A stretch of 64,000 bases of DNA from a bacterium (lineage in GTDB: Bacteria; UBA8248): positions 992,001 to 1,056,000 of the forward strand of contig OZ241875.1 in the NCBI GenBank assembly GCA_965203325.1. The letters run 5' to 3'. Below, in pieces: positions 29,679-45,317 of the stretch; positions within the stretch are counted from its first letter, which is position 1, and each line of letters begins with the position of its first letter. The translations under genes were made by a program, and so were the position numbers. A model generated the notes under the pieces. That model was given only the letters and a program-made list of their open reading frames with translations. It was not told the origin of the DNA and did no database searches.

Positions 29679-30785
29679 TCACAGGTCGATTGCGCATCGG
29701 ACGTCATGCGCTGCAAAGAGATCCACGAGGTCCTCGACGCTCAGGTCGAGCAAACCGGCGACACGCCGCACCGAGACGCAACCCTCCTCTAACGCGAGTC
29801 CGAGCACCTCCATGAAGGGTCTCGAGAACAGGGCGGGCGGGATGTTCTCGGCGACGTCTGGCCTGTTGTTGCGCAATGCCGCATCCGGCAGGGAACGCGC
29901 AGCCGCAGGTTTCAATTCGCCGAGCGCGACCAGCCGCCATTTCAGCGCCGAGGCCGTCACGCCAAACTCGTTCGCCACCGCGTTCAGCTTCCCGGTCAAA
30001 TCATCCTGAACGAGGTTCGACCAGTTCCCGAACCGCGCCAGGATAGCGGCCGGCATCAGAACCGCCGCCGCGAAGTTGTTGGCGAGTTGCTCGGCGCGGT
30101 TGCCTCCGGTCTCCATCGCTTCCTCGGAGTGTTCGGGCGGCATCGCATCCCAAGTCAGGATGTGAAAGAGCTCATGGGCGAGATCGAAGTGACGGCGTCC
30201 GACAACCTCGCGTCGTGCGATCAGCACCGCGTCGAGTTCGGGCAGGCGGCAGGCCGCGCCCGAGATGCCGCGTTCGGCATCCATCATGAGAACCAGGATG
30301 CCGAGTTCACGTTCCATGACTTCCACGAGGCGCACAGCGGGGACCTCGCCGAGATCGAATTCGGTGACGAACCGTTCGCCAGCCGACATGGCATCCTCAA
30401 AACGCGAACGGCGAGTGAGGCCGAGCGCCCGCCTCATTAGCGGGGTTTCGTAACCGACCTGTGGCGCCAGGGTGCGGAACGCGGCGATCCAACGTCCGGC
30501 GCTGCGTTCACAGGCTTCAAGCCGTTCAGCGCCGACGCCGGTCTGGCGCCAGGAGAAGCGTCCTTCGCCCGCTAGCCGGAACGGATCGGTGAAGTACTCG
30601 ATCGGAGCGTCCAGTCTTTCGACCGCGAGTAATAATTCCTCCGCCGTCACGCGTCTGGCGCCCGTCTCGATGGCCGATACCGTCTGCCGGTCCCTGAAAC
30701 CGAAGATCTCCGCTACACTCTCCTGCGAGAGCCTGCGTTCCTCTCGCAATGCCTTGATCCGCCTGCCGATAAGCCCTGTCGTCAT
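29679..30785 (-). CDS. XRE HTH + ImmA/IrrE (M78) Zn metallopeptidase
   Basis: N-term HTH IKALREERRLSQESVAE; HELFH (HExxH); EQLANNFAAAVLMP. Confidence 0.92.
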   Translation of the reverse strand: MTTGLIGRRIKALREERRLSQESVAEIFGFRDRQTVSAIETGARRVTAEELLLAVERLDAPIEYFTDPFRLAGEGRFSWRQTGVGAERLEACERSAGRWIAAFRTLAPQVGYETPLMRRALGLTRRSRFEDAMSAGERFVTEFDLGEVPAVRLVEVMERELGILVLMMDAERGISGAACRLPELDAVLIARREVVGRRHFDLAHELFHILTWDAMPPEHSEEAMETGGNRAEQLANNFAAAVLMPAAILARFGNWSNLVQDDLTGKLNAVANEFGVTASALKWRLVALGELKPAAARSLPDAALRNNRPDVAENIPPALFSRPFMEVLGLALEEGCVSVRRVAGLLDLSVEDLVDLFAAHDVRCAIDL

Positions 30786-30811
30786 CAGAACCCTCCCGCG
30801 AATAAGAAATC

Positions 30812-30831
30812 TTGCATTATTTTATATGCAA
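30812..30831. promoter_or_regulatory. Candidate operator upstream of the XRE-ImmA gene
   Basis: TTGCAT-N8-ATGCAA palindrome in an AT-rich patch ~27 bp upstream of the start codon. Confidence 0.4.
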
Positions 30832-30894
30832 TTATTTTATGCGTTTTGCAAGCTGCTTTCAAAGCCACATCAAGATTTCTTACGACTCGTAATG

Positions 30895-31175
30895 GTTCTT
30901 TCGTGGGGTGATAGCGTAGTCGATGTCAGAGACAGTTGTTGGTGCTGCGCGGTGTAGACAGTTTGGGCTTGTGCCGCCATCACCTCGCGCCGAACAATTA
31001 CCGACAAGGACCTGCCTGGATGCGCGGGAATTATAACGAGGCCGCTTTCGTTTTGATTACGTTTTGTGGAATACAAATTCCGAACAAAATTCCCCCAACA
31101 AATACCTACAACAGTTTCAACAAACTACAAGCATCCCACCACCACCGGAAATCCCCCACTGCCTGAAAACACGCG
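30895..31175 (+). repeat. Structured non-coding repeat, copy B of 3
   Basis: Same motif order as copy A, and it also shares the downstream TTTCAACAAACTACAA..GGAAATCCCC..GAAAACACGCG segment with A. Confidence 0.85.
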
Positions 31176-31198
31176 GGAGAGCGGGATGCGCGCTCCTC

Positions 31199-31256
31199 CC
31201 GCCCGGCTGACGAGCCGGGCGATCCCCTGGAGGAAACCGCCTTACTGCCGCTTCGC
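31199..31256. repeat. ~57-bp direct repeat with hairpin, left copy
   Basis: CCGCCCGGCTGACGAGCCGGGCGATCCCCTGGAGGAAACCGC-CTTACTGCCGCTTCGC; near-identical to 37343-37398. Confidence 0.85.
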
Positions 31257-32120
31257 GCCGAACGCGCCGACGTACGCCCCGGTGTCGAAGGCGCCGAAGG
31301 CCTCCTCGTGGCCGGGGCCGTGGAAGCGGCCGGACAGGCGGTCCGTGCCGGGCGCGCCTTTCGCGAAGGCGCCGCCGGAGAGCCGCATGCCGCGCCATTC
31401 GAGCGCCACGCCGGCGCCGCCGTCGTCGAGGTCGACGTCCACGTCGACCAGGGGCCGCGCGAGGTCCGCGATCCGCAGCTCGGCGGTGCCGGGGAGGCGC
31501 GCGAAGTCGCGGGTCCGCGCCGCCTCGGCGATGCCGCTCCAGGTCGCGCCGCCCGTACCCGCCGGGTTCGTCCCCGACGGCTCGCCCGCCGCCCAAGCGT
31601 GCGCCGCACGGAACGTGCCGGTCCAGGTCTGCCCGTCCGCCTCGGCCGTGAGCGCGCCCGCGCCAATCTCCACCGCCGCGTAGCCGTGCACGCCCCAGAA
31701 GCCGTGGCGCGTGAACTCCGCCCCGGTGACCGTCGCCGACGCCCCGGCGAAGGCCCGCGTGAGCGGGGGCCCGCCCGTCGCGCCGCTCGCCGTGGCGAAC
31801 CCGGCCCGCATGCCCGTGCCCGCGCGGCCCGCGAGCGCCCGCAGGTCCTCCGCCGGGCAGCCGGCGCCGGGGCAGCCGAGCGGCGTCGACCCGGTCTCCC
31901 CGATCGGCTCTTCTCCCGCGCGCGTGAGTTCATAATCGAAATAAAGCCCCGAGACGAGCGGCGCGGCGGGTTCGCCGGCCGCGGGCGGCGGCTGTGTGTC
32001 GGGAGGCCGTGTTTCGGGAGGCCGTGTGGACGGCGGCGCCGACGTGTTCCCGCCACCGCAGGCGGCGAGGGTCAGCGCGCACGCGAGCGCGGCGGCGCAA
32101 CAAAGTATCCGGTGTGTCAT
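31242..32120 (-). CDS. Lipoprotein with TbpB-like C-terminal beta-barrel
   Basis: Lipobox LTLAAC followed by GGG and a Pro-rich linker; C-term GRFHGPGHEEAFGAFD...VGAFGAKRQ; AAGGAG SD. Confidence 0.8.
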   Translation of the reverse strand: MTHRILCCAAALACALTLAACGGGNTSAPPSTRPPETRPPDTQPPPAAGEPAAPLVSGLYFDYELTRAGEEPIGETGSTPLGCPGAGCPAEDLRALAGRAGTGMRAGFATASGATGGPPLTRAFAGASATVTGAEFTRHGFWGVHGYAAVEIGAGALTAEADGQTWTGTFRAAHAWAAGEPSGTNPAGTGGATWSGIAEAARTRDFARLPGTAELRIADLARPLVDVDVDLDDGGAGVALEWRGMRLSGGAFAKGAPGTDRLSGRFHGPGHEEAFGAFDTGAYVGAFGAKRQ

Positions 32121-32172
32121 GAGAGTCGTTCTCCTTTCAGATCGGAGGCATGTCCGCATCGGCGCATCCCCC

Positions 32173-35100
32173 TCAGAACCGCAGGCTGAGGTCGAGCCCC
32201 AGTTCGTGCTCGGGCTCGGACACGGCGCTCTCGCGCCGCTCGCCCGCCAGTTCCACGCGAAGGTCCGCGCCCCGCGCCTCGTACCGCGCACCGAGCCTGA
32301 GGCGCCGGCTCTCCCCGCCGGCGAGGCCGGCTTCCGCGAACGGCGTCAGCACCCCGCCCGACGCCGTCCCGAACCCGTAGCCGACCTGCGCGTCGAGCGC
32401 GCCGTCGTCGCCCGAAGCCGCCGGGTTCGGCATCTCCTCCGCCCACAGCGCCCGCGCGCCGCCCGTTCCCGCGCCCCAGCGGGGCGCGAGCGCGAAGAAC
32501 AGGCCGCGGCCGCCGGCGCCCGGACCGGCGCGCACCGTCAGGCTCACGCCCCGCTCCTCCGCACCCTCCTCGCTGTGCGCCGCCAGCCACCGCCCGCGCA
32601 TCTCCACCGAAACCCCGGGCGCCGCGTAGCGCACGCCGCCGGCGAGCTCGAACCCGCTGCCCTTAAGCCCGTCGCCGCCGTCGTGGCGCACCGCCGCCTC
32701 CAGGAAGGGCTCCAGGCTGCTCTCGCCCGCCAGCGCGAAGCGCCGCGAGGCCTCGAGCCCCGCCCGCAGCCGCCAGCTGTCGGCGGAGAGCCCGTGGATC
32801 GCGTCCGGGCCGTCATCGGTCTCCATCTGCGTGACGCTCGCGTCGGCGCGCACCGCCAGCGCCGCGCCGGCGAGTCCGCCGAGCGCACGCCTGACCCCCA
32901 CCGACGCCATCCGCATCGTGAGGTCGCCGGTCTCCGCGTCCGCGTCCCCGGGCTCGTGGCGCGCCTCGCCCCAGCCCGCGCCCGCCACCGCGCGCAGCTC
33001 CAGGCCGTCCGCGAGCGTCCAGCGCCCGTAGGGATAGACCGCCGTCAGCGTCGTCTCCAGCCGGCCCCGGCCGGTGAGCGCGCCCCCGGCGAAGGAATAA
33101 TCCGCCTCGCCCGTCCCGTGGCTCACCGCGAGGCCCGCCACCCACGGGTCCGAGCGCCCGTCCACGCCCAGCCAGCCCGTGCGCAGCTTCCCGTCGTAGC
33201 GGAGCCCCGTCTCGCCGCCTCCCGCGAACGTCCCGAGGTCCCCCCGGCCCCACACCGCCCACTGCGGCGCCGCCGGGCCGGCGTCCTCCGCCGAGGCGAG
33301 ACGCACCGAGAAGGCGCTCGCGCCGAACAGGTCGGACGCCGCAAGCGCCCGGCTCTCCGTGCAGCCCGAAGCCGGCACAAGGCCGGCGGCGGCGTACCGC
33401 TCCGGCGCGCAATCGCGCAGCGCGTAGGCCGCGGCGGAACCATCGAGCGACACCGCCTGCCCGGCCAGCGTCACGCCGCTCGCGCCGATGTCGGCGAACC
33501 TGCTCCCGATGTTGTCCAGCGCGCTCGCCGTCGCCCTTCTCACCACCGCCGCCAGCGCGCGCCTCACAGCGCCCTCAACCGCCGCGCGCCGCGGGTCCGC
33601 CGCCACCGCGACCGCGAAGGTGAGCGCCGCCTCGTCGCCGTCCGCGTCCCGCACCGTCCAGGTGTAGCGCACAGGCCTCTGCGACCGCGACGGCGTGCCG
33701 CTCAGCCTCCGCGTGCCTAAGTCGAGGCTCAGCCCCGGGGGCGGGGAAGGCGCCAGGCGGTAGGTCAGCGTCCCGTCGCCGCCCGTCGCCGCCGGAAGCG
33801 CCAGCGCCGCGATCGCCGTGCCCGCCGTCCATGACTGGTCCGCGACCGCCGCGTCGCCGAACGACGGCATCAGGTTCTCCTCCACCTCGACCGTGAAGGT
33901 GAGCGCCGCCTCATCCCCGTCCGCGTCCCGCACCGTCCAGGTGTAGCGCACCGGCCCCTGCGCCGCCTCCGGCGTGCCGCTCAGCGTGCGCGCGCCTGAG
34001 TCCAGCGCCAGGCCCGAAGGCGGCTCGGGCGTCAGGCGGTAGGTCAGTGTCCCGTCGCCGCCCCTCGCCCGGGGCAGCGTCAGCGCCGTGATCGCCGTGT
34101 TCTGCTTGTACGACTGTGCGGCGACCGCCGCGGACCCGAAGCTCGGCGTCAGGTCCGGCGCTGCGCCTCCGCCGCCGCCTCCGCCGCCTACATTGCCGCC
34201 GCCTCCGCCTACATTGCCGCCGCCCCCGCCGCCGCGGTCGTCGTCCCGGATCGTAATCTGCACAGAACGCGGGCTGCCCGCCGTCACCTCAGACGGCAGC
34301 GTCCCCAGCGCCACCGTGAACGTCTCGTCGTCGGTGTCGCTGTCCTGCGCCGTGGTGATGGTCCCCGTTCCGTTGGTCGCGCCCGAGGCGATCGTGATGC
34401 CCGTCAGCGTCCCGTGGTCCTCGGGCTCGGCCGTGCCGTCGGTGATCGTCAGCGGTATCGTCACGCTGCTCGACAGCGCCGCCGACAGCGTCGCCGTCAC
34501 GGTCACGCTCGATCCCTCCGCCACCGTCGGCGAGGCCGACAGCGTCACCGTGGGCGTGGTCGTGTCCAGCGTCGCCACGGCCCCCTCGGTCGTGCCCGTC
34601 GCGTGCGCCCAGAAGCCCTTGCCGCTCGCGTTCTCCGCGCGCACCCGCACCCGGTAGGTCGTGCCGTCGTCGAGGCCCGTGATGGCCTGCGAGGCCGCCG
34701 TGCCGCTGCGGCTCACCGCCACCCATTCCGTCGCCACGTTCGTGCCCACGGCCGCGCCGGCGGCGACCGTGTTCGATGCGGTATAGTGCACGTCGTAGCC
34801 CGTCAGCGTCCCCGAGGGCGCCGTCCAGGCGAGGTCCAGCCTGCCGTCGCCGGGCGTCACCGCCAGGCCCGCCGGCGCGGCCGGCGCGTTCTGCGCATGC
34901 CGCGTGACGGTGACCGTCCAGGTCGTGTTGGCCCCCTGCCCCAGCGTCGACGACGCCACCACCTCGATGGCGTTCGCGCCGGCGTCCAGCGCGATCGCCC
35001 CGCTCGTGTCGCCGCTTGTCAGCGACACCGCGGCGGCGCCCCGCTTGCCCACCGACAGCACGTACCCCCCCAGCACGCCGACCGTCGGCCTCGCCTTCAC

Positions 35101-37257
35101 GTGCGTCACCGCGTGCGGCACCGCCGCCGTGTAGTCCGTCACGCGCGGCGAGAAGCCCGGGCTCAGCGCCAGCGCGTCGTAGCTCGCATTCTCGCCCTGC
35201 GCCTTGGTGAGCGCCAGGCCCGTCAGCAGCAGGCCCTCCGGCGTGCCCGCGCCCTCCACCCAGGGGCTCACCAGCCTTCCGCCGGCGTTGCTCGCTCGCA
35301 CCCGCACCCGGTAGCGCTGCAGGTTCCGGCCCCTGACCGTGTACGAGGTCGCCGTGGCATCGTTGTGGGGCCCGCTCGCGCGCTGGAGCGCCACCCAGCC
35401 CACGGCCTCGTCGACGCCGCGCGCGCGGGCGTCCGCCGCGACGGCGGTCGAGGTGGTGTAGTCCACCCAGTAGGCCGTCACCGTCCCCACCGGCGGCGCC
35501 GTCCACGACAGGTCCAGCTTCCCGTCGCCCGGCGTCACCGTCAGGCCGGTCGGCGCCGCGGGCGCCAGCGCGGCCTCCACCGGCGCCGTCCACACGCCCG
35601 CGGACATGCCGTCGCGCTTCACCGAGCGCACCCGCACCAGGTAGGTCTCGCCGACGGCGAGGCCCGTGAAGGTGTGGCTCGTGCCCGTCACGTCCGTGTC
35701 GGTGTTCGGCCAGGCCGCGGCCGACTTCAGCTTGCTCTGCACCTCGTAGCGCGCCACGTCCACACCCGCCGGCGCCTTCCAGCGCGCCGTCAGCTCGCGG
35801 TCTCCCGGCCTCAGCGTCAGGCCCGAGGGGACGTTCGACGTCGGCGTGCCGGTGGCGAAGACGTAAGCGCCCTCCGGGCCCGCCGTGCGCAGGCGCACCC
35901 GGTACGCCCTGCCGTTGGTCAGGCCGGTAATCGTGTACGAGGTGTCGGTGTCGTCGACATCAGCAGACACGGCCACCCAGTGCGTGGCCGCGTTCGAGCC
36001 CGAGCTCGCCGCGGCGTCGGCGACCGCGCCGGCGCCCGTCCTCGGCGCCGAGGTGTAGTCCAGCTCGTACGCCACGAAATCCCCGTCGGGCCGGGTCCAG
36101 GTTACGAGGAGCTGCGCATTGCCCGGCGTGACCGTCAGGCCGGGCAGGCCGAGCGCCTCCGGCGTGCCGGCGCCGAACGCCCAGGCGCCGTCGCCCCCGG
36201 CGCTCGTCGCCCGCACCCGCACCCGGTGGGCAGACCCGCTCGGCAATTTGCCAATCCTGTGCGAGGTCCTCGCGCCGTGACCGTTGCGGGACACCGCCAC
36301 CCAGCCAGTCGCGCCGTTGGTGCCGGCTTGCACCGCCGCGTCGTTCGCGACCGTGCCCACGGCCGCCGACGTGTAGTGCACGTCGTAGCCCGTCACCGTC
36401 CCCGGCGGCGCCGTCCACGACACGTCCAGCCGCGTCGGGCCCGGCGTGACGCGCAGACCCGTCGGCGCGGCCAGCGGCACCGCCGCGCCGTTGACGCGGA
36501 TTTTCATCGACCGACCATGAGCTTCGGCGGTCCAGGTCGACGAAGCGGTCGGCGCGGCCGATCCGTTTCGAAAGAAGTTACCTGCGTTGGCGATGCTCCA
36601 GCCGGCGGCCGCTCCGCTGTCTTCCGCATCCTTGGCGTTATGCGTGAGCTCAAAGGTGGAGAGAGTCTCGGCAGTGGTGTAAACGACCACGTGGTATTCG
36701 GTGCTCGCCGCGAGCGTGGTGCCTGCCGGTGCCGAAAAGGTGGAGGCCCTTGCGCCCGTCGCAAAGCTCGAAGGAACCGTCAGGTCCGCGAGCTTCGACC
36801 CGGGCTTGCCGCTGCTGGATGACCAAAGCTCCGCCTCGATCGTCGCAATCTGCTGCGCGGTCAGGGCGGCGGTAAAGACGTTCGTACGTATCTCGATGCT
36901 TTCGAGGGTGTAGCCGCCGCCGTTGGAGCCTGTCGTGAAGCCTTGAGCGCGGGCGAATACTCTGGCCGTTTGCAGGTTATCTAACCCCGTCTGCCCGATG
37001 TTGCTCACCAACACATCGGCGGCGGCCGGGGCGGCGGCGAACGGGGAGAGCGCCGCAAGCAGCAGCGCGAGGACGGGAAGGAGACGGAAGCGGCGGGCGC
37101 GGGGGCGCCCGGTGCGCGGCTCAGGCTTGCGCCCGGAACCTGGCCGGGAATGCGGGACGCCGTTCGGGCCGCTCGTGCCGCCCTTTTCTTCGGATGACGG
37201 ATGACGGACCATGCCGCCCCCGGTTGCAAGCCTCTCCATGCGATGTCTCATTTTCAT
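32173..37257 (-). CDS. Large autotransporter-like surface protein with fibronectin type III, cadherin-like, Calx-beta-like and Ig (He_PIG-like) repeats
   Basis: Signal peptide LLPVLALLLAALSPFAAAPAAA. About five Fn3 units (APxGLxVTPG..LxxxWxAP..Y.V.Y..RVRVRA), two YTWTVRDADGDEAALTF repeats and a Gly-rich linker. C-terminal barrel ends LGLDLSLRF. Exact start uncertain. Confidence 0.88.
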   Translation of the reverse strand: MKMRHRMERLATGGGMVRHPSSEEKGGTSGPNGVPHSRPGSGRKPEPRTGRPRARRFRLLPVLALLLAALSPFAAAPAAADVLVSNIGQTGLDNLQTARVFARAQGFTTGSNGGGYTLESIEIRTNVFTAALTAQQIATIEAELWSSSSGKPGSKLADLTVPSSFATGARASTFSAPAGTTLAASTEYHVVVYTTAETLSTFELTHNAKDAEDSGAAAGWSIANAGNFFRNGSAAPTASSTWTAEAHGRSMKIRVNGAAVPLAAPTGLRVTPGPTRLDVSWTAPPGTVTGYDVHYTSAAVGTVANDAAVQAGTNGATGWVAVSRNGHGARTSHRIGKLPSGSAHRVRVRATSAGGDGAWAFGAGTPEALGLPGLTVTPGNAQLLVTWTRPDGDFVAYELDYTSAPRTGAGAVADAAASSGSNAATHWVAVSADVDDTDTSYTITGLTNGRAYRVRLRTAGPEGAYVFATGTPTSNVPSGLTLRPGDRELTARWKAPAGVDVARYEVQSKLKSAAAWPNTDTDVTGTSHTFTGLAVGETYLVRVRSVKRDGMSAGVWTAPVEAALAPAAPTGLTVTPGDGKLDLSWTAPPVGTVTAYWVDYTTSTAVAADARARGVDEAVGWVALQRASGPHNDATATSYTVRGRNLQRYRVRVRASNAGGRLVSPWVEGAGTPEGLLLTGLALTKAQGENASYDALALSPGFSPRVTDYTAAVPHAVTHVKARPTVGVLGGYVLSVGKRGAAAVSLTSGDTSGAIALDAGANAIEVVASSTLGQGANTTWTVTVTRHAQNAPAAPAGLAVTPGDGRLDLAWTAPSGTLTGYDVHYTASNTVAAGAAVGTNVATEWVAVSRSGTAASQAITGLDDGTTYRVRVRAENASGKGFWAHATGTTEGAVATLDTTTPTVTLSASPTVAEGSSVTVTATLSAALSSSVTIPLTITDGTAEPEDHGTLTGITIASGATNGTGTITTAQDSDTDDETFTVALGTLPSEVTAGSPRSVQITIRDDDRGGGGGGNVGGGGGNVGGGGGGGGAAPDLTPSFGSAAVAAQSYKQNTAITALTLPRARGGDGTLTYRLTPEPPSGLALDSGARTLSGTPEAAQGPVRYTWTVRDADGDEAALTFTVEVEENLMPSFGDAAVADQSWTAGTAIAALALPAATGGDGTLTYRLAPSPPPGLSLDLGTRRLSGTPSRSQRPVRYTWTVRDADGDEAALTFAVAVAADPRRAAVEGAVRRALAAVVRRATASALDNIGSRFADIGASGVTLAGQAVSLDGSAAAYALRDCAPERYAAAGLVPASGCTESRALAASDLFGASAFSVRLASAEDAGPAAPQWAVWGRGDLGTFAGGGETGLRYDGKLRTGWLGVDGRSDPWVAGLAVSHGTGEADYSFAGGALTGRGRLETTLTAVYPYGRWTLADGLELRAVAGAGWGEARHEPGDADAETGDLTMRMASVGVRRALGGLAGAALAVRADASVTQMETDDGPDAIHGLSADSWRLRAGLEASRRFALAGESSLEPFLEAAVRHDGGDGLKGSGFELAGGVRYAAPGVSVEMRGRWLAAHSEEGAEERGVSLTVRAGPGAGGRGLFFALAPRWGAGTGGARALWAEEMPNPAASGDDGALDAQVGYGFGTASGGVLTPFAEAGLAGGESRRLRLGARYEARGADLRVELAGERRESAVSEPEHELGLDLSLRF

Positions 37258-37342
37258 TTTCCGGGTCCTTCCCTCTGGTGGAATCCTCAGAGCCGAACAA
37301 AGATGCGAATCCGCCTGATATTCGCCATGCTTCCGCCGGGGA

Positions 37343-37398
37343 CCGCCCGGCGGACGTGCCGGGCGACCCCCTGGAGGAAACCGCTACTGCCGGTTCGC
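37343..37398. repeat. ~57-bp direct repeat with hairpin, right copy
   Basis: CCGCCCGGCGGACGTGCCGGGCGACCCCCTGGAGGAAACCGC-TACTGCCGGTTCGC. Confidence 0.85.
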
Positions 37399-37504
37399 CG
37401 TATCCCGGGCAGCTCGAAATACGGTAGACTTGCGGACTCGCAGTCCGGGCCGGTGGTTCCGCGAGACAAGAATCCCTGCGGTATGCGCCCACCTCGAACC
37501 CGGG

Positions 37505-37718
37505 CTGGTGTCCGCTAATTGCCGTTATTGGCCCCCAGAAGCCTTGTTTTCCGCCGAAAAACCCGTTTCGGGGGGCATTCGGGCCGCAAATGAGCGAAAG
37601 GTGAGCGAAAAAAGGCGCAAAACGGCGCCCGAAACCCCTCCGGGGACCCCGGAATTGCGCTTGACATGGCCGTGAGAGGTGTTAAATTTTCTGATAACGG
37701 CAATTATCGGACTCCAGA
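37505..37718. promoter_or_regulatory. Candidate invertible promoter segment bounded by two inverted lox-like sites
   Basis: Left site CCGCTAA-TTGCCG-TTATTGG (spacer 37519-37524); right site CTGATAA-CGGCAA-TTATCGG (spacer 37698-37703). Inside: TTGACA (37661-37666), 16 bp, TAAATT with an extended TG. Confidence 0.7.
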
Positions 37719-37723
37719 AACCC

Positions 37724-37762
37724 GCCGTTTCGCCGGTATTCCCCTGCGAAACGGCTTTTTTT
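37724..37762 (+). terminator. Intrinsic terminator immediately right of the invertible segment
   Basis: Perfect 10-bp stem GCCGTTTCGC/GCGAAACGGC followed by T7. Confidence 0.8.
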
Positions 37763-37825
37763 GTGGAAATTCCCCGTCGTCGTCTATATTTGGTAATCGA
37801 CGAGGCCCTGGAGCGGCCTCAGGGA

Positions 37826-38005
37826 ATGGAAACGGCCGCCGATCTGGCGAAGGCGTCGATGTCTGAGAACACGCGGCGGGCGTACGGGACGGCGCTCAGG
37901 GTATTCGAGCGCTCGGGAAACCCCGAGACCGACGCCGGGATAGCGGCGTACCTGGGGGATCTCTACGAGGGGGGCACTCGGCGGCCGTGGCCGCGATGGC
38001 GAGGC
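37826..38005 (+). pseudogene. N-terminal fragment of a Cre-like tyrosine recombinase
   Basis: METAADLAKASMSENTRRAYGTALRVFE...DAGIAAYLGDLYEGG, then frameshift and loss of similarity. Confidence 0.65.
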
Positions 38006-38110
38006 TGCGCTACGGGCGGTGAGGTCCGCCCGGCGTTTCGTCGTGAGCATGTCCTTCGCGGCGGGCAGGTCCGCCGCGTGCAGGACGCCCGTCTTCTCCC
38101 GAATATCTCT

Positions 38111-38821
38111 CTACCGCCTCTTCTTTCTCCGGGCGGCTCTCTCCTCGGACGTGGAAGTCCATCTCCGCGCGGAGGCCCACTTCTCGAGGTCTTCGAGCAG
38201 GTAGCGCACCCGGTATCCGGTGCGAAGAAAATCCGGCCCCTCTCCGCTCACGCGGTAGCGCTCCAGCGTCTTGGGCGAGAGGCCGAGCCAGGCGGCCGCC
38301 TCCCGCGTGTTCAGGTGGTTCTCCTCCGTGCGCTCATCGGCGTCCCCGGGTTCCACGGCGGCGTCCCACGTCCCGTCGAACGGATCGGGCAAGTCCGCGA
38401 GCCTCTCGCGTATAACGCGGATTTCCTCTCGCGTCGCGTTGGCCGCCATCCAGGCGCGCACCCGGTCGAAGGTCTTGAGATACGGCGAGGCGCCCCGGCG
38501 CAGCCGCCCCACGAAGGAGGGATTCCCCACGGCCTCCTCGCCCAGGATCGAGACCTTGGTCCTGCTCACCGCGAGGAACGCCTCGACCTCGGCCCGCAGG
38601 AGCGGTCCCAGGGGCGGATACCCCATGAACGCGAGCACCCGGTCCGCCGTGTCGACCCGCAGGGGCCGCCCCCGGGCCTGCAGTCCCACGAAGCCGGGAA
38701 TGCCCAGCGCGCCCACCCCGAAGCGCCTCGCGCTCATCCCTCGGCGCGCGCGCCAGAGCGCAATGCTCCGGCGCATTCGCTCGTCCAGCGGGGTGCCGGT
38801 ATCGTCGTCGAACGCGGTCAT
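38111..38821 (-). CDS. DNA-binding protein: two Cro-like repeats plus a C-terminal AlpA/excisionase-type HTH
   Basis: HLNTREAAAWLGLSPKTLERYRVSGEGPDF...VRY; duplicated ..G.P.FV..L.RG.....T.DRV.A.M unit. Confidence 0.8.
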   Translation of the reverse strand: MTAFDDDTGTPLDERMRRSIALWRARRGMSARRFGVGALGIPGFVGLQARGRPLRVDTADRVLAFMGYPPLGPLLRAEVEAFLAVSRTKVSILGEEAVGNPSFVGRLRRGASPYLKTFDRVRAWMAANATREEIRVIRERLADLPDPFDGTWDAAVEPGDADERTEENHLNTREAAAWLGLSPKTLERYRVSGEGPDFLRTGYRVRYLLEDLEKWASARRWTSTSEERAARRKKRR

Positions 38822-39089
38822 GGCGCGCGAACATAAGGAAAGGACGAGCGCCCGTTCAATCGTTGTTTCTAGCGCAGAAGGTACACCCGGGAAGAGTCCG
38901 CGAGCGCGTCCGTGCGCGGGTCGCTCATCGGTTCAGCCTGAAATCAAGGGGGTTTTCCGGAAAACGAGGGTCGCTAGAGAACGTGCAGCGAGGCGCTGCG
39001 GAAAAAAAGGAAAGACGCCGCCCCCCGGGCGAGAGCTCGAAAACCTCTTTCGTTCACGCCGCAGTGGGCTGTTTCGCGAGTCGTCCCTG

Positions 39090-39185
39090 CGAATGACCGG
39101 CGATTGGCGGCGCCCGGCGAGTTGCATCTCGACCGGAGAAGCCCCTGCCATGGCAAGGCGCTGCGCGCTGCCCGTGCGCAGGTCG
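39090..39185 (-). pseudogene. C-terminal fragment of a Cre-like tyrosine recombinase
   Basis: DLRTGSAQRLAMAGASPVEMQLAGRRQSP resembles HSLRVGxAQxLAxAGASxxEMQxAGRWxS; the catalytic H and Y are not retained. Confidence 0.65.
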
Positions 39186-39409
39186 AAACGGCGCCGATTT
39201 CCTTGTTTCATTCGTTTTTATCGCATCGTATGCTGATGTTCCGGGTCGTCCGCCGAATACAATACGGCCAAGCCGAAACAGGCGGACATTCCTTCGTGGA
39301 TTGTATGCCAACGGCCCGGATTCTGGAGGACATATAAAATATCCGGCCGGGCAGGCGGGGCGCAGCAATGCCTCCGCCTACCCGGCCTGCCACCCCAGTA
39401 ATCATTCTC

Positions 39410-39722
39410 TCATGGGGTGATGAGCATCAAAAATTCGCCGACCCGAATCGGATACGCCGTGCCATACCAACAACTGCCTCTGAGCCTTGTGGTATTATCA
39501 CCCTGCCAACGAACGATTTACCGGTCTTGTAAACGTTCGGCGGCAGGGTGATAATTTAGTCGATGCCGGAGACATTTGTAGGAATTGCACGGTGTAGCTA
39601 GCTTCAGTTGGTGTTTTCCAGTTCCTAATCACCCCACGACCGAACGTATACCCGGTCTTCGACGACTCGCGCCCCCTGGGATGCTCCGGGGTTGTACTGA
39701 GGCCGCTTGCGTTTTGATTACA
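39410..39722 (+). repeat. Structured non-coding repeat, copy C of 3 (39535-39722), preceded by an extra hairpin unit
   Basis: Same motif order as copies A and B. Extra unit GGGGTGATGA...TTATCACCC..CGAAC at 39410-39515. Perfect 14-bp IR at 39494-39507 / 39542-39555. Confidence 0.85.
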
Positions 39723-40134
39723 TTTATTTCAAGGAATTTATAACTGGCTTGAAAACAATGATTTAATTTTCATATTCTGGATAATACGATAAATACCGAT
39801 AAATTAACGGGGTTTTTCGATAAATAGCTGACAATTTTTTTCTCGGGAAATGACGCCGCGGAATCCGGGCGCAGGGGAATCCTGCCACAGTCTGCGACTC
39901 CATCGATGACGGCAAATGCGCGCAAATGCGGGGATTTTCGCACCCTCACCGCTCAGGCCGGCTCCCGGGCGATCAAAAACGTCTTTCATTTTTTCACAAG
40001 CGATATATTGTTGTAATTCAATAGCTTAGGAGGCCGGATTCCGCCGCCGGGAAACAGTCCATAGCGAGGCAGCCCGGTTTGGTGATATAATGGCGTCACC
40101 ATATCCGGGAGTCATTTCCTAAGAGGAAACCGCG

Positions 40135-40776
40135 ATGCCCAGACGCCATAAAGTACGGAAATACAAGCCCTATCTCATGCGCTACCTCCATTCGGCCGAC
40201 CCGAACTACGAGCCGGTGCTCATGGATTTGCTCGAACACGAGCACGAGGTGTATGACGAGAGCACCGTCGGCGAGGGGGCCGAGTCGACCCGCGGAGAGC
40301 GGCTTCCCCACATGTGGCACGTTGTTTTTACGGAACTTACGGACATTCTCACCCCGTTCCACATCGAGCAGCTCTTCGAGCGGCTGGAGAAGGATTTCGC
40401 CGCCACCTGCCAGGTTCTGCGCGAGATGTCCGACCCGCAACCGGTCGAAAAAGAGCCGGAATTCAGGCATTACCTCATGCGCTACATGAACTCGGACGAC
40501 CCGAACTACGAGCCGGTGCTCAGAGACATTCTCGAGCACGAACACGAGAGATACGACGCCATCACGGCGAGCGAGGAGGTTGATTTCCAGCGCGGCGAGC
40601 AAGGAACGCTCGCCTGGCAGGCGGTATATAGCCAACTCTGCAGCGTCATTTCGCCCGCGCGAATCAAAGAGCTTTTCGACAAGCTGGAAAGGGATTTCTC
40701 GGCCACCTGCGCGCTCTTCCACGAGATGGCCGAGGCCGAGAAACTCATACAGGAAGAAGAGGGCGGACCCGGCTAG
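40135..40776 (+). CDS. Hypothetical acidic protein made of two tandem ~100-aa repeats
   Basis: YLMRYxxSxDPNYEPVLxDxLEHEHExYD...LFxxLExDFxATC occurs twice; AGAGGA SD. Confidence 0.8.
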   Translation: MPRRHKVRKYKPYLMRYLHSADPNYEPVLMDLLEHEHEVYDESTVGEGAESTRGERLPHMWHVVFTELTDILTPFHIEQLFERLEKDFAATCQVLREMSDPQPVEKEPEFRHYLMRYMNSDDPNYEPVLRDILEHEHERYDAITASEEVDFQRGEQGTLAWQAVYSQLCSVISPARIKELFDKLERDFSATCALFHEMAEAEKLIQEEEGGPG

Positions 40777-40901
40777 ACCCGGCTTCACGCCCCTTGCCAC
40801 TCCCGGCCGCTATCCTTACAATCCAAGGCTCACCAAGCCGAAAGACAACCGGACGCCTCATCAAATCAGAGGTTTACAGCTCATCGAGAGGGGAATCCCG
40901 C

Positions 40902-41288
40902 ATGGCCGAATACTCATACGACCACCTTCACTTCAGGAGCGAAGACCCGCACGCCGCCCGCGATTTCTGGATCGACATGTTCGGCGCCACCGTCGTGGAG
41001 GAGCGCAAGCTGGGGGGCGCGCCTTCGTTCAACATGGAGTTGAACGGCATGGTGTTCCTCGTCTCGGGCCGGGCGGAGGGAGAAGACCCCGTGCGGACTG
41101 GCTCCGAACCCCGCTACGGGCTGGATCATTTCGGGCTCCGGGTCGACGACATGGACGAGGCGCAAAAAGAGCTGACCGAAAAGGGCGCGGAGTGGATTTG
41201 CGAGCCCTGGGAGATTCGGCCGGGTGTGAAGATCGCCTTCATCAAGGGGCCTGACAACATCAGCATCGAGATGGCCCAGCGCGGCTGA
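40902..41288 (+). CDS. VOC/glyoxalase family protein
   Basis: YDHLHF..D......FW...FG; GLDHFGLRVDD; AFIKGPDNISIE. Confidence 0.9.
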   Translation: MAEYSYDHLHFRSEDPHAARDFWIDMFGATVVEERKLGGAPSFNMELNGMVFLVSGRAEGEDPVRTGSEPRYGLDHFGLRVDDMDEAQKELTEKGAEWICEPWEIRPGVKIAFIKGPDNISIEMAQRG

Positions 41289-41480
41289 TTTCTTCACCTC
41301 GGACGACATCAATCGGCAGGGACGGTCATACCGGCATGGTATTGTTTTCATTCACTCTCAGGCGATGCCAGGGTAATTGTCCGCCGGATGCGACACGGGT
41401 GAATTTCGGGAACTGGCGTATGCGCGCTCAGAAGTGGTAACCTTCTCAGAGAAACGTATCCCGCCGCCGGGGATTTCGTC

Positions 41481-42167
41481 ATGGAGAAATGGAACAGACG
41501 AGAGCTGCTGAAAAACTCCCTGCTCGGCCTGACCGCGCTCGGCACAGGCGCATTCGCGCTTCGGGAAACCCTCGCTCCCACGCCCGCTTACGGCGAATTG
41601 GGGGAATACGGAAAATTTCTGCTCGCGCGAGGCGAAAAGCCGGATGAGGCTCCGCCCCAGGCGCGAATGCCGACTCACTCGGACTCCATGGGACCCTATT
41701 ACAAGGAAGGGGCTCCTTTCCGTGGCCGCCTGATGCCCCGGGACGCGGCGGGAACGCCCATGCTCATCCGCGGCCGCGTCTATGGACACGACACCCAGAA
41801 ACCGCTCGAGGGCGCGATTATCGACGTCTGGCAGGCGGATGACAGCGGCAGCTACCACGGCATGGACGAGAAGGAGAATTATCTCTACAGGGCGCGTATG
41901 CGCTCCACAAGGAGAGGGCTGTACCAGTTCGAAACCGTGCATCCGGGGCGATACGGCTTCGGCTTCTGGGCGAGGCCCTCACACATTCATTTCTATATCC
42001 GCCATCCCGATTACCAGCCCCTGGTGACGCAACTGTATTTTCGGGGCGACCCGAGACTGGGCGACCATGAAAGAGCGAGACCCTCATTGATCATCCCGCT
42101 CAAGAAGGTTTCCTGGGGAAAAACCTACGAACTCGGAAATTTCGATATCGTTCTGGTGCGGAAATGA
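41481..42167 (+). CDS. Intradiol ring-cleavage dioxygenase-like protein with Tat-type signal
   Basis: NRRELLK; GPYY; IDVWQADDSGSY; TVHPGRY; RPSHIH; LVTQLYF. Confidence 0.88.
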   Translation: MEKWNRRELLKNSLLGLTALGTGAFALRETLAPTPAYGELGEYGKFLLARGEKPDEAPPQARMPTHSDSMGPYYKEGAPFRGRLMPRDAAGTPMLIRGRVYGHDTQKPLEGAIIDVWQADDSGSYHGMDEKENYLYRARMRSTRRGLYQFETVHPGRYGFGFWARPSHIHFYIRHPDYQPLVTQLYFRGDPRLGDHERARPSLIIPLKKVSWGKTYELGNFDIVLVRK

Positions 42168-42207
42168 GGAAAATCGCACGTTTTCAACTACTTGAAATGC
42201 CCCGCTC

Positions 42208-43524
42208 TCAGCCGTAGAGCGCCGCTTGAAGCTGCTCGCGCATTCTCTCGGGCGCCATACCAAAAGCGCGCAGCGTGTCCTCCGCTTCATGAATGACCCG
42301 GTCGATATCCTCATAGATTTTGTACGTCTTGGTGTAGTCGGGATACTCGAACCCCATGGCCTGGCCGAGAATCGTCATGAAGTTCTCGATTTCAAAGGAT
42401 TCACCCTTTTCCAGACCGCATAGTTCACGGTGACAACTGTGATAAACGGTGAGCAGCGAATCCACCTTGGCGCGGCGCGCCGAGTCGAAAAGTTTCTCCC
42501 GCATCGCCGCTTTCGCCTCGGGAATGACGAGCGTGGGACACTGATAGGCATGATCGGAGAGTTGTTCAATCTCCACAAACTCGAGGCCGGGAACCGCCCG
42601 GAGAATTTTCACCACGTTTTCTTCGACGCCATCGCTGCCCCCGTGCAGGTGCACGGCCACGCGCTTTTCCACTTTTTGCGTGAATTCTCCCCTTAAAGCC
42701 TCCAGATTGTCCACCAGATATTGCGTGATGTGGACGAAGGGCAGGGTTTCCTCTTCGCTATTTATCGAATCACCCGCCATGGGGAGAAGCGGCTTGCCGG
42801 TATAGAGGTGTTGGTATTCGGAGTACTGCATCTGGCAGGTCGGGCAAAACGTAATGACTTTCTCGGGCTGATATGACTTGAAATGATCCAAAGAGCGCGC
42901 GCCCATCGCCGCCCCCGCCTCCAGATCTCCGCGCCTGATGTGGTTAATGCCGCAGCAATGGCCCACGCCGCCGGCGACCTCATAGTCCAGCCCCAGCCGG
43001 TCGAAAACATCGATGCAGGAGAGCAGGATATGGGGCGTCTGGAGGATGTTGCACCCAAAGTAAAACACCGCGTCCACTTTGTTCGCCTCCGAGCCCCGCA
43101 CGGCGGTGAGGCGTCTGAATTGTTCGGGTTCTAATTGCAAAGCGGCCATGAAACGAATCTTCCGGCTCAAGTCCTGAAAATAAGACCTGCCGGCTTCCTG
43201 GATGTCCGCTTTCTCTGATTCGATATTCTGTAGCTTCAGCTTGGCGTAGGTGAGCATTTCACGCGGATTGACGTCTTCCGGACAGGCCTCGATGCAAACT
43301 CCGCTTTTTTGGCAAGCCTTGGCCCACAATGCCCCTTCCGGTTCATGCGGACGATCGTTGATGATGTTGAGCACGGATTTCGTTACCCTCTCCGGGTCTG
43401 CGCCTTTCGCTCCCGAATACGAAACCATCGGGCAGACCTCGTAACATTTTCCGCAATGCGTACAGGCTTCGGTGATTCGGGAGATTCGCTCTTCCATGAA
43501 ACTCCGGTAGGCAGTCGCTTCCAT
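42208..43524 (-). CDS. Fe-S oxidoreductase (GlcF/HdrD-like, 4Fe-4S + CCG domains)
   Basis: CTHCGKCYEVCP; CQKSGVCIEACP; YFGC; HCCG; CPTC. Confidence 0.85.
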   Translation of the reverse strand: MEATAYRSFMEERISRITEACTHCGKCYEVCPMVSYSGAKGADPERVTKSVLNIINDRPHEPEGALWAKACQKSGVCIEACPEDVNPREMLTYAKLKLQNIESEKADIQEAGRSYFQDLSRKIRFMAALQLEPEQFRRLTAVRGSEANKVDAVFYFGCNILQTPHILLSCIDVFDRLGLDYEVAGGVGHCCGINHIRRGDLEAGAAMGARSLDHFKSYQPEKVITFCPTCQMQYSEYQHLYTGKPLLPMAGDSINSEEETLPFVHITQYLVDNLEALRGEFTQKVEKRVAVHLHGGSDGVEENVVKILRAVPGLEFVEIEQLSDHAYQCPTLVIPEAKAAMREKLFDSARRAKVDSLLTVYHSCHRELCGLEKGESFEIENFMTILGQAMGFEYPDYTKTYKIYEDIDRVIHEAEDTLRAFGMAPERMREQLQAALYG

Positions 43525-43808
43525 GACGTTCCTTCATGAGGATGGAAAATGAGCAGAAATTTTATGGGAGCCGACCGGCGTGGTCAACCAAACAGATAAT
43601 GGATGGTGCCACGCTGCTTGAGATAGCATGATGGCGTGAGCAGTCGTCTCATCCTGGGAGTTTTTGACCCGGCTCCGCCAATATGTTAGTTAGGAGCCAG
43701 TTTCCTGACTCCCTGAGTGACGGAAAACCCTCATGGAAACGGTCTCATCCCTGCATCCGCGCAAACATGATTTGCTTTTTACGGAAAGCTTCGAGGAGGT
43801 TTTGAGAA

Positions 43809-45317
43809 ATGCCGAATGCTACAGAGAAATACGATGTCGTCGTCGTGGGTTGCGGCAATGCCGCACTATGCGCATCGCTTGCGGCGCGAGACCAGGGTGC
43901 GAATGTATTGGTGCTCGAAAAAGCGCCCGAGGCATGGCGCGGCGGCAATTCGGCTTTCTCGGGAGGCTTGTTTCGGTTCGCCTTTAACAGCATCGAGGAC
44001 ATCTACTCGCTCGTACCGGACCTTTCCGACGCCGAGAAAGAAAATATCGAGATTGACCCCTACACATCGGAAAAATTCTTTGAAGACCTCGCCCTGTTGA
44101 CCGAATACCAGACTGACGGCGACCTTGCCTCCGTCCTCATCCACGAGTCGTTTCCGACCCTGAAATGGATGCAATCGAAGGGTCTGCGGCTCATCCTCGC
44201 AAGCGGCCGGCAGGCATTCAAGGTGGACGGCAAGATGCGCTTCTGGGGCGGTCTGGTTCTCGAGATCGTGGGCGGCGGACGCGGCCTCATAGATTCCCTG
44301 CTTGATTCTGCGAACGAGGCCGGAGTCGAGATTCGCTACGCATCGAAGGCGATGCGCCTGCTCACGGACCCGATGGGCGGCGTGACGGGCGTCGAAGTAA
44401 AAGGTCCCGATGGGCCTTACGAAATCGAGACGCACGGTGTGGTGCTGGCGTCGGGTGGTTTCGAGGCGAACGCCGAGATGCGCTGCCGCTACCTGGGTCC
44501 GGGCTGGGAGCTCGCAAAAGTCCGCGGCACCCCCTACAACACGGGCGACGGCATCAAGATGGCGCTCGATATCGGCGCGCAGCCCTACGGCAACTGGAGC
44601 GGCTGTCACGCCGTGGCCTGGGATTTGAACGCCCCGCCCTTCGGTGATCTCACGGTAGGAGAGTCCTACCAGAAACACTCCTATCCGTTCGGCATCATCG
44701 TGAACATCGAGGGAAAACGCTTCGTGGACGAGGGGGCCGATTTCAGAAACTATACCTACGCAAAATACGGCCGAAACATCCTCCAGCAGCCCCAGCGGGC
44801 CGCTTTTCAGATTTTCGACCAGAAAACGGTTCACATGCTGCGCGACGAATATCGCATCCGCGAAGTCACCAAGGCCGAGGCCAACACGCTGGAAGAACTT
44901 GCCGGACAACTGGAGATCGATGTCGATGAGTTCGTCAAAACCGTTCAGGAATACAACGCCGCCGTTCAGTCGGGCGAATACAACCCGACGATCAAAGACG
45001 GCAAATGCACACAGGGTATCGACCCCCCGAAATCGAACTGGGCGCTTCCCATCGATGAGCCGCCCTATCTCGGCTTCGCCGTTACCACGGGCATCACGTT
45101 CACCTTCGGCGGCATCCGCGTGACACCCAAAGCGGAGGTCATGAATACCGAAAACGAGATCATCCCCGGTCTCTTCGCCGCGGGCGAACTCGTGGGCGGC
45201 GTCTACTATTTCAACTACCCGGGAGGCGCAGGGCTGACCCTGGGCTCCGTATACGGTCGGCTGGCGGGCACCGCAGCGGGGCAGCGCGCCGCCGAGGCGA
45301 ATACGGTCTCCGCGTAA
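43809..45317 (+). CDS. tcuA: FAD-dependent tricarballylate dehydrogenase TcuA-like flavoprotein
   Basis: VVVVGCGNAALCA; RGGNSAFSGG; GGFEAN; RFVDEGAD; GITFTFGG; NYPGGAGL. Confidence 0.85.
   Translation: MPNATEKYDVVVVGCGNAALCASLAARDQGANVLVLEKAPEAWRGGNSAFSGGLFRFAFNSIEDIYSLVPDLSDAEKENIEIDPYTSEKFFEDLALLTEYQTDGDLASVLIHESFPTLKWMQSKGLRLILASGRQAFKVDGKMRFWGGLVLEIVGGGRGLIDSLLDSANEAGVEIRYASKAMRLLTDPMGGVTGVEVKGPDGPYEIETHGVVLASGGFEANAEMRCRYLGPGWELAKVRGTPYNTGDGIKMALDIGAQPYGNWSGCHAVAWDLNAPPFGDLTVGESYQKHSYPFGIIVNIEGKRFVDEGADFRNYTYAKYGRNILQQPQRAAFQIFDQKTVHMLRDEYRIREVTKAEANTLEELAGQLEIDVDEFVKTVQEYNAAVQSGEYNPTIKDGKCTQGIDPPKSNWALPIDEPPYLGFAVTTGITFTFGGIRVTPKAEVMNTENEIIPGLFAAGELVGGVYYFNYPGGAGLTLGSVYGRLAGTAAGQRAAEANTVSA

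Follow-up and report, generated by a model that had tools for sequence, protein, structure and literature searches.

Promoter inversion is a classic route by which host-associated bacteria vary their surfaces, and, to our knowledge, nearly all that is understood about it comes from work on cultured pathogens and gut commensals. In the fimS switch of the E. coli type 1 fimbriae, operated with FimB and FimE, the promoter lies between inverted repeats of 9 bp, and accessory proteins are required. A different use of site-specific recombination is found in the Cre/loxP system of phage P1, where a 34-bp site laid out as 13+8+13 serves plasmid maintenance. In uropathogenic E. coli, the ipuS element together with IpuA/IpuB and the Fim recombinases controls the autotransporter UpaE, as set out in the relevant passages of PMC6083910. 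According to the corresponding parts of PMC2268961, the mpl family of Mycoplasma penetrans (Horino 2003, cited there) and the Mpi/Tsr systems of Bacteroides consist of many dispersed surface-protein genes, each with its own invertible promoter and switched independently. Further, the main text of the DeepInverton catalogue (PMC11602134) describes inverted repeats round promoters that are enriched near surface and biofilm genes.

The locus described here lies in a stretch of 64,000 nucleotides, the whole of which was analysed and is referred to as the window; positions are those of the window unless a genome position is specified. Functionally it is an inverton like fimS and, especially, ipuS, and it falls outside the FimB/E family. 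With fimS it shares a promoter between inverted repeats and a tyrosine recombinase encoded alongside, but the recombinase belongs to another subfamily, and fimS is a single locus. The likeness to ipuS, as that system is presented in the passages of PMC6083910, goes further: both are promoter-bearing invertible elements beside tyrosine recombinase genes that switch an autotransporter operon, and in both several recombinases act on several switches, which for the present family is a proposal. In contrast, the ipuS enzymes belong to the FimB/E family, whose models the enzyme of the window family fails, and the number of switches is three per genome in that system versus 16 here (PMC6083910). Those passages mention neither a full 34-bp lox-like site nor locus-specific spacers. 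As in Cre/loxP, the site comprises 34 bp with two inverted arms and an asymmetric spacer whose orientation decides the outcome, and the recombinase aligns with Cre at all catalytic residues including the Trp; judged by sequence, the enzyme together with the full two-arm sites is Cre/lox-like. Unlike loxP, the sites are built as 14+6+14 and serve the inversion of a chromosomal promoter rather than plasmid maintenance. The mpl and Mpi/Tsr systems likewise have many dispersed switches, and their recombinases act on several loci, but the recombinases and sites are others, whereas here most loci carry, or once carried, a recombinase gene of their own and the spacers differ between loci (PMC2268961, same parts). 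The invertons of the DeepInverton catalogue are of the same general class; its main text makes no mention of sponge, autotransporter or Nitrospin, and its supplements may list the window family (PMC11602134). Based on the comparisons described below, the region is likely to be a phase-variation switch of the invertible-promoter type for surface proteins.

The core of the switch is an inverted repeat at 37505-37528 / 37694-37717, which the repeat search returned as 24 nt with 22/24 positions (92%) complementary and 165 nt between the arms. A previous sequence-only reading of this DNA had proposed a 19-bp repeat with one mismatch (37510-37528 / 37694-37712); the repeat is present, but it extends beyond those limits to the full 24 nt, of which 22 are paired. 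At either end lies a lox-like site of 34 bp. The left site (37505-37538, plus strand) is composed of the 14-nt arm CTGGTGTCCGCTAA (37505-37518), the 6-nt spacer TTGCCG (37519-37524) and the 14-nt arm TTATTGGCCCCCAG (37525-37538). The right site (37684-37717, plus strand) is composed of an inner arm with a GATAA end (37684-37697), the spacer CGGCAA (37698-37703) and the outer arm TTATCGGACTCCAG (37704-37717). Three of the four arms have the 14-nt sequence CTGGnGnCCGnTAA in common, while the right inner arm is reduced to CTGATAA because of its overlap with the -10 element of the promoter. As the two spacers are reverse complements of each other, the sites are inverted relative to each other. The two sites with palindromic arms, the reverse-complementary 6-bp spacers and the likeness of three of the four arms had all been pointed out in the sequence-only reading and can be read in the sequence, as can every other sequence feature that it listed. 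The invertible segment, taken from spacer to spacer and delimited by the aligned copies, occupies 37519-37703 (about 180 bp). A lenient test of the 13-nt centre alone gave 2 matches, and 2 or more were obtained in 13/100 shuffles, which is not significant; what speaks against chance is the full 24-nt repeat, together with the fact that 16 genomic copies and 11/22 congeners have kept it.

The segment carries a predicted strong promoter, TTGACA-16-TAAATT with a TG extension (37661-37688, plus strand; 10/12 consensus matches), whose hexamers TTGACA (37661-37666) and TAAATT (37683-37688) point to the right in the window. Both strands of 36900-38300 were scanned for promoters, and this was the sole promoter-like site returned (1 versus 0.2 +/- 0.5 in shuffles), which bears out the earlier call of an extended -10 promoter directed rightward into a terminator. 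Transcription is predicted to start near 37695, rightward, in the window orientation and near 37526, leftward, after inversion. The -35 hexamer is invariant in 16/16 genomic copies and in 27/27 aligned sequences across the genus, and the -10 hexamer is variable; in one flipped copy (c09), with TTAACT as its -10, the promoter scan finds 0 promoters.

Downstream of the promoter lies a predicted intrinsic terminator (37724-37762, plus strand) composed of a GC-rich hairpin (37724-37755) and a run of seven T residues (37756-37762). The region 37695-37775 has a folding energy of -29.7 kcal/mol (z = -4.06), and 0/200 shuffles fold as well; the hairpin with its T-run is absent from the output of a simple terminator scan of 36900-38300. 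A strong hairpin abutting a T-run is found in just 11/23 distinct right flanks, and a consensus fold over 19 of the 23 predicts 0 pairs, the fold not being kept in distant relatives. The earlier idea of a dedicated OFF-state terminator holds for the subfamily of the window. An additional idea, that minus-strand terminators in the core (37630-37613 and 37575-37548) block read-through in the manner of a diode, was dropped; terminator-like sites in 36900-38300 number 1 versus 1.3 in shuffles, and the proposed stem is lost in several congeners.

Two further elements flank the switch. Beside the T-run, most relatives conserve a sequence of the type TTGGAA-16-TATACT, read by eye, which appears in the window as GTGGAA-16-TATATT (37763-37790, plus strand) and is probably the recombinase gene's own promoter; the promoter scan of 36900-38300 does not list this candidate. 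Outside the left site, a block of ~50 nt (37443-37494) is conserved in 16/16 copies and at 80-90% in congeners, above most of the switch core. In the ON state the mRNA leader would begin with this block, which may act as a leader element or provide an accessory binding site. An RfaH/ops-like element in this conserved left flank was rejected by eye, the similar letters being on the wrong strand. An Rfam search of 30000-45000 matched no family, and its sole row was a sub-threshold match to sRNA-Xcc1 at 39240-39328 (plus strand; 27.6 bits versus a gathering score of 53, E 0.31).

On the left of the switch and on the other strand is the gene of an autotransporter adhesin of 1694 aa (32173-37257, minus strand), whose open reading frame starts at 37257, leaving 247 nt to the left site. 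Pfam places five fn3 domains, He_PIG and Cadherin-like in the passenger, and a signal peptide was recognised by eye. The last 349 aa, searched separately, match the beta-domain PF03797 (E 2.5e-13, 50.8 bits, cut-off 26), which is not reported when the full-length 1694-aa protein is searched; such a C-terminal domain agrees with an autotransporter of type Va. A lipoprotein gene of 292 aa with the lipobox LAAC (31242-32120, minus strand) follows 50 nt downstream. No Pfam family reaches its threshold for this protein; its C-terminus, ...VGAFGAKRQ, resembles the ending of the class B lipoproteins at other switch copies. The five fn3 domains, PF03797 and the lipobox gene 50 nt downstream support the earlier proposal of a Fn3 autotransporter-lipoprotein operon to the left on the opposite strand. 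Downstream of the operon, 29679-30785 (minus strand) encodes a 368-aa protein with HTH_3 and Peptidase_M78 (ImmA/IrrE-like).

A large divergent ORF is found on the left in 14/16 switch copies of the genome and is of two kinds. Those of the first kind resemble adhesins and carry Cadherin-like, Calx-beta and fn3 domains. The C-termini of these sibling adhesins fail Pfam, and one of them is homologous to the beta-domain of the window protein (36% identity, E 7e-38). The second kind comprises lipoproteins with an LAGC lipobox and without a Pfam family.

Just to the right of the switch, where a fragment of a Cre-like recombinase had been noted, a remnant of such a gene starts at 37826 and extends to 38022 (plus strand), as delimited by alignment to an intact paralogue. 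It retains ~47 aligned N-terminal codons, followed by a 1-nt loss and an internal deletion of ~230 codons, beyond which the final 7 codons and the stop codon remain in a shifted frame. The deletion sits between two short direct repeats encoding Ala-Met-Ala (by eye). Across the 16 loci, the recombinase gene is full-length at 6, present as an N-terminal remnant of the same kind as in the window at 7 and missing at 3.

The intact paralogue (310 aa) matches PF00589 at 6e-19. Among solved structures it comes closest to Cre, with 17 Cre and Cre-derived chains matching at E values down to 4e-13, and the next solved family is XerC-like (9e-7). The Cre alignment covers only residues 91-306 at low identity; within it the catalytic R-K-H-R-W-Y all align, which we take to correspond to R173, K201, H289, R292, W315 and Y324 of Cre. 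No NCBIfam model reaches its cut-off for the intact paralogue, and the FimB/FimE-type models stay far below theirs (NF007371, 21 bits, cut-off 222; NF007370, 18.3 bits, cut-off 221). The enzyme is thus Cre-like rather than FimB-like, as the sequence-only reading had it. When the six intact paralogues are compared in pairs, dN/dS ranges over 0.34-0.66, which indicates only moderate constraint.

The decay of the neighbouring gene had raised the possibility that the window switch is locked. While the decay itself is confirmed by the remnant, locking is unlikely because the window spacers match and intact paralogues exist. Further, the arms of the window switch are the same as those beside the six intact recombinase genes, so that action of a recombinase in trans on the window switch is plausible.

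The repeated module extends further to the right. It includes a gene for a 236-aa protein with a C-terminal HTH_17 domain (excisionase-like; 38111-38821, minus strand), which occurs in 10 switch modules of the genome, once elsewhere in it (79% identity) and otherwise in the closest congener only. Beyond this gene, a second, inverted remnant of a recombinase C-terminus (39092-39181, minus strand) encodes 30 aa that are 73% identical to residues 259-288. The remnant also occurs in copies c03, c08, c11 and c16 and hints at an older rearrangement of the module.

A search of the genome (4.39 Mb) with 37480-37800 as the query gave 21 matches, and separate BLAST of the left flank, the core and the right flank resolves 16 switch loci. 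At 13/16 loci, core and flanks all share one strand, as they do in the window. At the remaining 3/16 (core starts 2078046, 2672553 and 3869539 in the genome), the core alone is turned round, with the sites as exact limits and the flanks unchanged. Two of these three flipped loci lack an intact recombinase gene of their own. The overlaps between the alignments are the repeat arms themselves, and the breakpoints lie inside the repeat. Since the flipped copies retain the left- and right-type diagnostic bases in their outer arms and have swapped inner arms, the exchange is placed within TAAT-N5-TTAT. Once turned back in silico, the three inverted cores can be aligned over their full length with the remaining 13. 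The site starts are 181 bp apart in 16/16 loci under a search pattern with an unconstrained centre. Because the copies are related to one another, such counts do not represent independent observations. Flipped copies are also found in two congeners, two in G012 and one in G014. For a comparison aimed at recent flips, the loci of G012, the closest congener, match several paralogues about equally, and orthology is not assignable. The invertible switch proposed earlier is therefore supported by comparison, with inversion in 3/16 paralogous copies and in two congeners.

Multiple copies of an element of ~210 bp with terminal inverted repeats could also be expected if the repeats were the ends of a small, non-autonomous, MITE-like element inserted in either orientation. 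However, homology passes both repeats in all copies, taking in the flanks on either side and the recombinase gene and running ~2 kb to the right, so the repeats are not the ends of a small mobile element. Every copy is found at an equivalent position, with like kinds of genes on its two sides, and the spacers co-vary within a locus. An origin by such insertion is therefore very improbable.

The predominant orientation has to be weighed as well. As 13/16 copies point right, the promoter might mainly serve the right side, making an RNA of ~65-70 nt (37695-37762) or reading through into the recombinase gene, while the adhesin has a promoter of its own and inversion regulates the supply of recombinase. 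The terminator is weak in many relatives, which would allow such read-through. Against this, three loci keep the switch without a recombinase gene on the right, the scan shows no other promoter-like site on the stretch from the switch to the adhesin gene, surface proteins are consistently encoded to the left, and the region matches no Rfam family. Collectively, these points make a mainly right-sided role quite unlikely. A second regulated gene to the right of the three recombinase-less copies was considered and rejected; their right neighbours, an amidase, an EamA transporter and an IS transposase, show no pattern.

The spacers provide a separate line of evidence for site-specific inversion. 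The central 5 nt are identical between the left and the right site in 15/16 loci, even though 8 variants occur. When the right centres were shuffled among the loci, the mean was 2.56 matches and the maximum 11, with 0/200,000 shuffles reaching 15. A centre that is variable between loci and matched within them fits the overlap region of a tyrosine recombinase, and it agrees with the earlier argument that inversion by such an enzyme takes place between inverted core sites with matching spacers. The base flanking the centre differs by side, being C, T or G on the left and A on the right; as this arm base stays different between the sides, a general homogenisation of the repeat does not account for the match. 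The agreement extends to relatives, where, with the centre left free in the pattern, left equals right in 29/30 listed loci with many kinds of centre, a list that includes a few duplicates. The spacers are not unique to single loci. TGACG is common to four loci and TGCCG to three or four, so any "addressing" by the spacer is incomplete.

The sole mismatching locus of the 16 is c14 (G000:C1:3371543, locus L106), a near-identical duplicate of the window switch. They agree at every position of 37135-37691 but not at 37692, nor at 37698, where the spacer begins. The spacers of c14 mismatch at 1/6 positions, which makes it a candidate for a naturally locked switch.

This duplicate bears on the question of whether the family once flipped and is now frozen, with the inverted copies being old and the window copy permanently OFF. 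Besides the spacer mismatch in c14, the lack of an intact neighbouring recombinase at 10/16 loci and the only moderate constraint on the recombinases would speak for such a fossil. Yet six recombinase genes are intact with all catalytic residues kept, the left and right spacers match in 15/16 loci despite 8 variants, the promoter -35 is invariant across species, and inverted copies occur in three species. A switch that has come to rest altogether is accordingly considered unlikely, and the window copy can probably still be flipped in trans.

From the observed anatomy, family, inverted copies, spacer co-variation and enzyme class, we infer how enzyme and site may pair, how either state would be transcribed, the action in trans and the role of the spacers. 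The Cre-like tyrosine recombinase would bind the two 14-nt arms of each 34-bp site and pair the two inversely oriented sites, and strand exchange within the 6-nt spacer would turn the 180-bp segment round. In the orientation of the window, rightward transcripts would end at the hairpin and T-run, leaving the autotransporter-lipoprotein operon OFF, a state assigned to the window copy from its orientation. In the inverted orientation, transcription would start at ~37526 and proceed leftward, crossing a leader of ~270 nt before it reaches the operon, which would then be ON. As the recombinase beside the window copy is dead, flipping there would depend on one of the six intact paralogues. The 16 chromosomal switches would in this way control paralogous autotransporter-like adhesins or surface lipoproteins. 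A spacer that is specific to the locus yet the same within it would permit independent flipping and limit recombination from switch to switch.

That the window locus itself flips is suggested by its paralogues and by the congeners. Public sequencing runs were also considered: 16 were found, and the four best (shares 0.41-0.66) were compared with 36900-38300 in the form of short Logan contigs. The contigs of these four runs break at 37504-37528, in or beside the left site; no strand-changing joint is listed among them, and there are 9 loose ends besides. Paralogues alone explain such breaks, which are therefore neutral with regard to flipping. The runs with small shares do not bear on habitat.

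Among relatives, the switch and the recombinase largely occur together. Switch DNA is present in 11/22 other species of the genus and in 1/18 genomes outside the genus, and the recombinase (E <= 1e-40) in 12/22 and 2/18, respectively. In the 22 congeners, which are labelled Nitrospinota MAGs, both are present in 10 and neither in 9; one of the two genomes with the recombinase only carries a divergent switch (L049). Relatives of the recombinase at 41-78% identity come from MAGs labelled Nitrospinota, Tectimicrobiota/Entotheonella, Binatia, Latescibacterota, Poribacteria, Longimicrobiales and others, which we take to be typical sponge-symbiont lineages. At 20/49 loci from many phyla, the 960 nt upstream of the recombinase gene contain a 16-nt inverted repeat with at most 1 mismatch; the controls yielded it in 3/49 stretches taken from within or behind the gene and in 3 taken far upstream.

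Taken further, these observations lead to a wider and more tentative proposal, namely that the family is a natural orthogonal lox set. In such a set, up to 16 switches would share a pool of Cre-like enzymes that are nearly identical to one another, the locus-specific 6-nt spacers would keep the switches independent and protect the chromosome, and the cassette of recombinase plus switch would have spread horizontally among unrelated uncultured phyla, apparently sponge symbionts, to stand before autotransporters, lipoproteins and SusC-like receptors. As a whole, this proposal is conceivable but somewhat less than an even bet. A full-text literature search, together with passages from the main text of PMC11602134 (its supplements aside), yielded no description of locus-specific co-varying spacers. 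The same kind of search found nothing on invertible promoters in sponge symbionts, and for phase variation of sponge symbionts by a tyrosine recombinase it gave a general review only.

The switches described here bring promoter inversion to an uncultured marine lineage and to large adhesins with fibronectin-III, cadherin-like and Calx-beta domains. Proteins of these types have been proposed to mediate contact between symbiont and host. If the switches flip in nature, each cell would show only a few of the 16 surface proteins at once. Of practical interest, the locus-specific spacers would be ready-made natural heterospecific sites for one recombinase family.

Several minor observations concern related sites and repeats. 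In Latescibacterota MAGs (loci L066-L069 and L089), a related recombinase gene (45-54% identity) and a divergent gene for a SusC-like TonB-dependent receptor are separated by a segment of ~250 bp that has the repeat TAATTTCCGATAAATC.. on both sides. The loci compared are all in one orientation, and L089 has an insertion of ~1.2 kb at the right repeat. A metagenome scan with the arm pattern returned 64 stretches, which is roughly the estimated chance level for 17 fixed bases, and by inspection none of the 64 resembles the switch core or its flanks. Four of these matches, on contigs L125, L131, L168 and L132, are palindromic 34-bp sites (CTGGnGTCCGnTAAT-N5-TTATCGGACnCCAG) that stand alone and are complete or almost so, a number far above chance for the second arm. 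They are intergenic, on unrelated contigs and without a second site nearby; the lox-like type of site may thus be used more widely. C/G homopolymer hairpin repeats (...CAACCCCCCCTACCCCCCCTTGTCAGGGGGG...) are found near switch modules at the congener loci L013, L014, L019, L039, L048, L057 and others. Finally, an AT-rich repeat at 39775-39940 of the window, with dozens of genomic copies of 40-165 nt, holds CGATAAAT and CCGATAAAT, which recall the arms of the recombinase sites.
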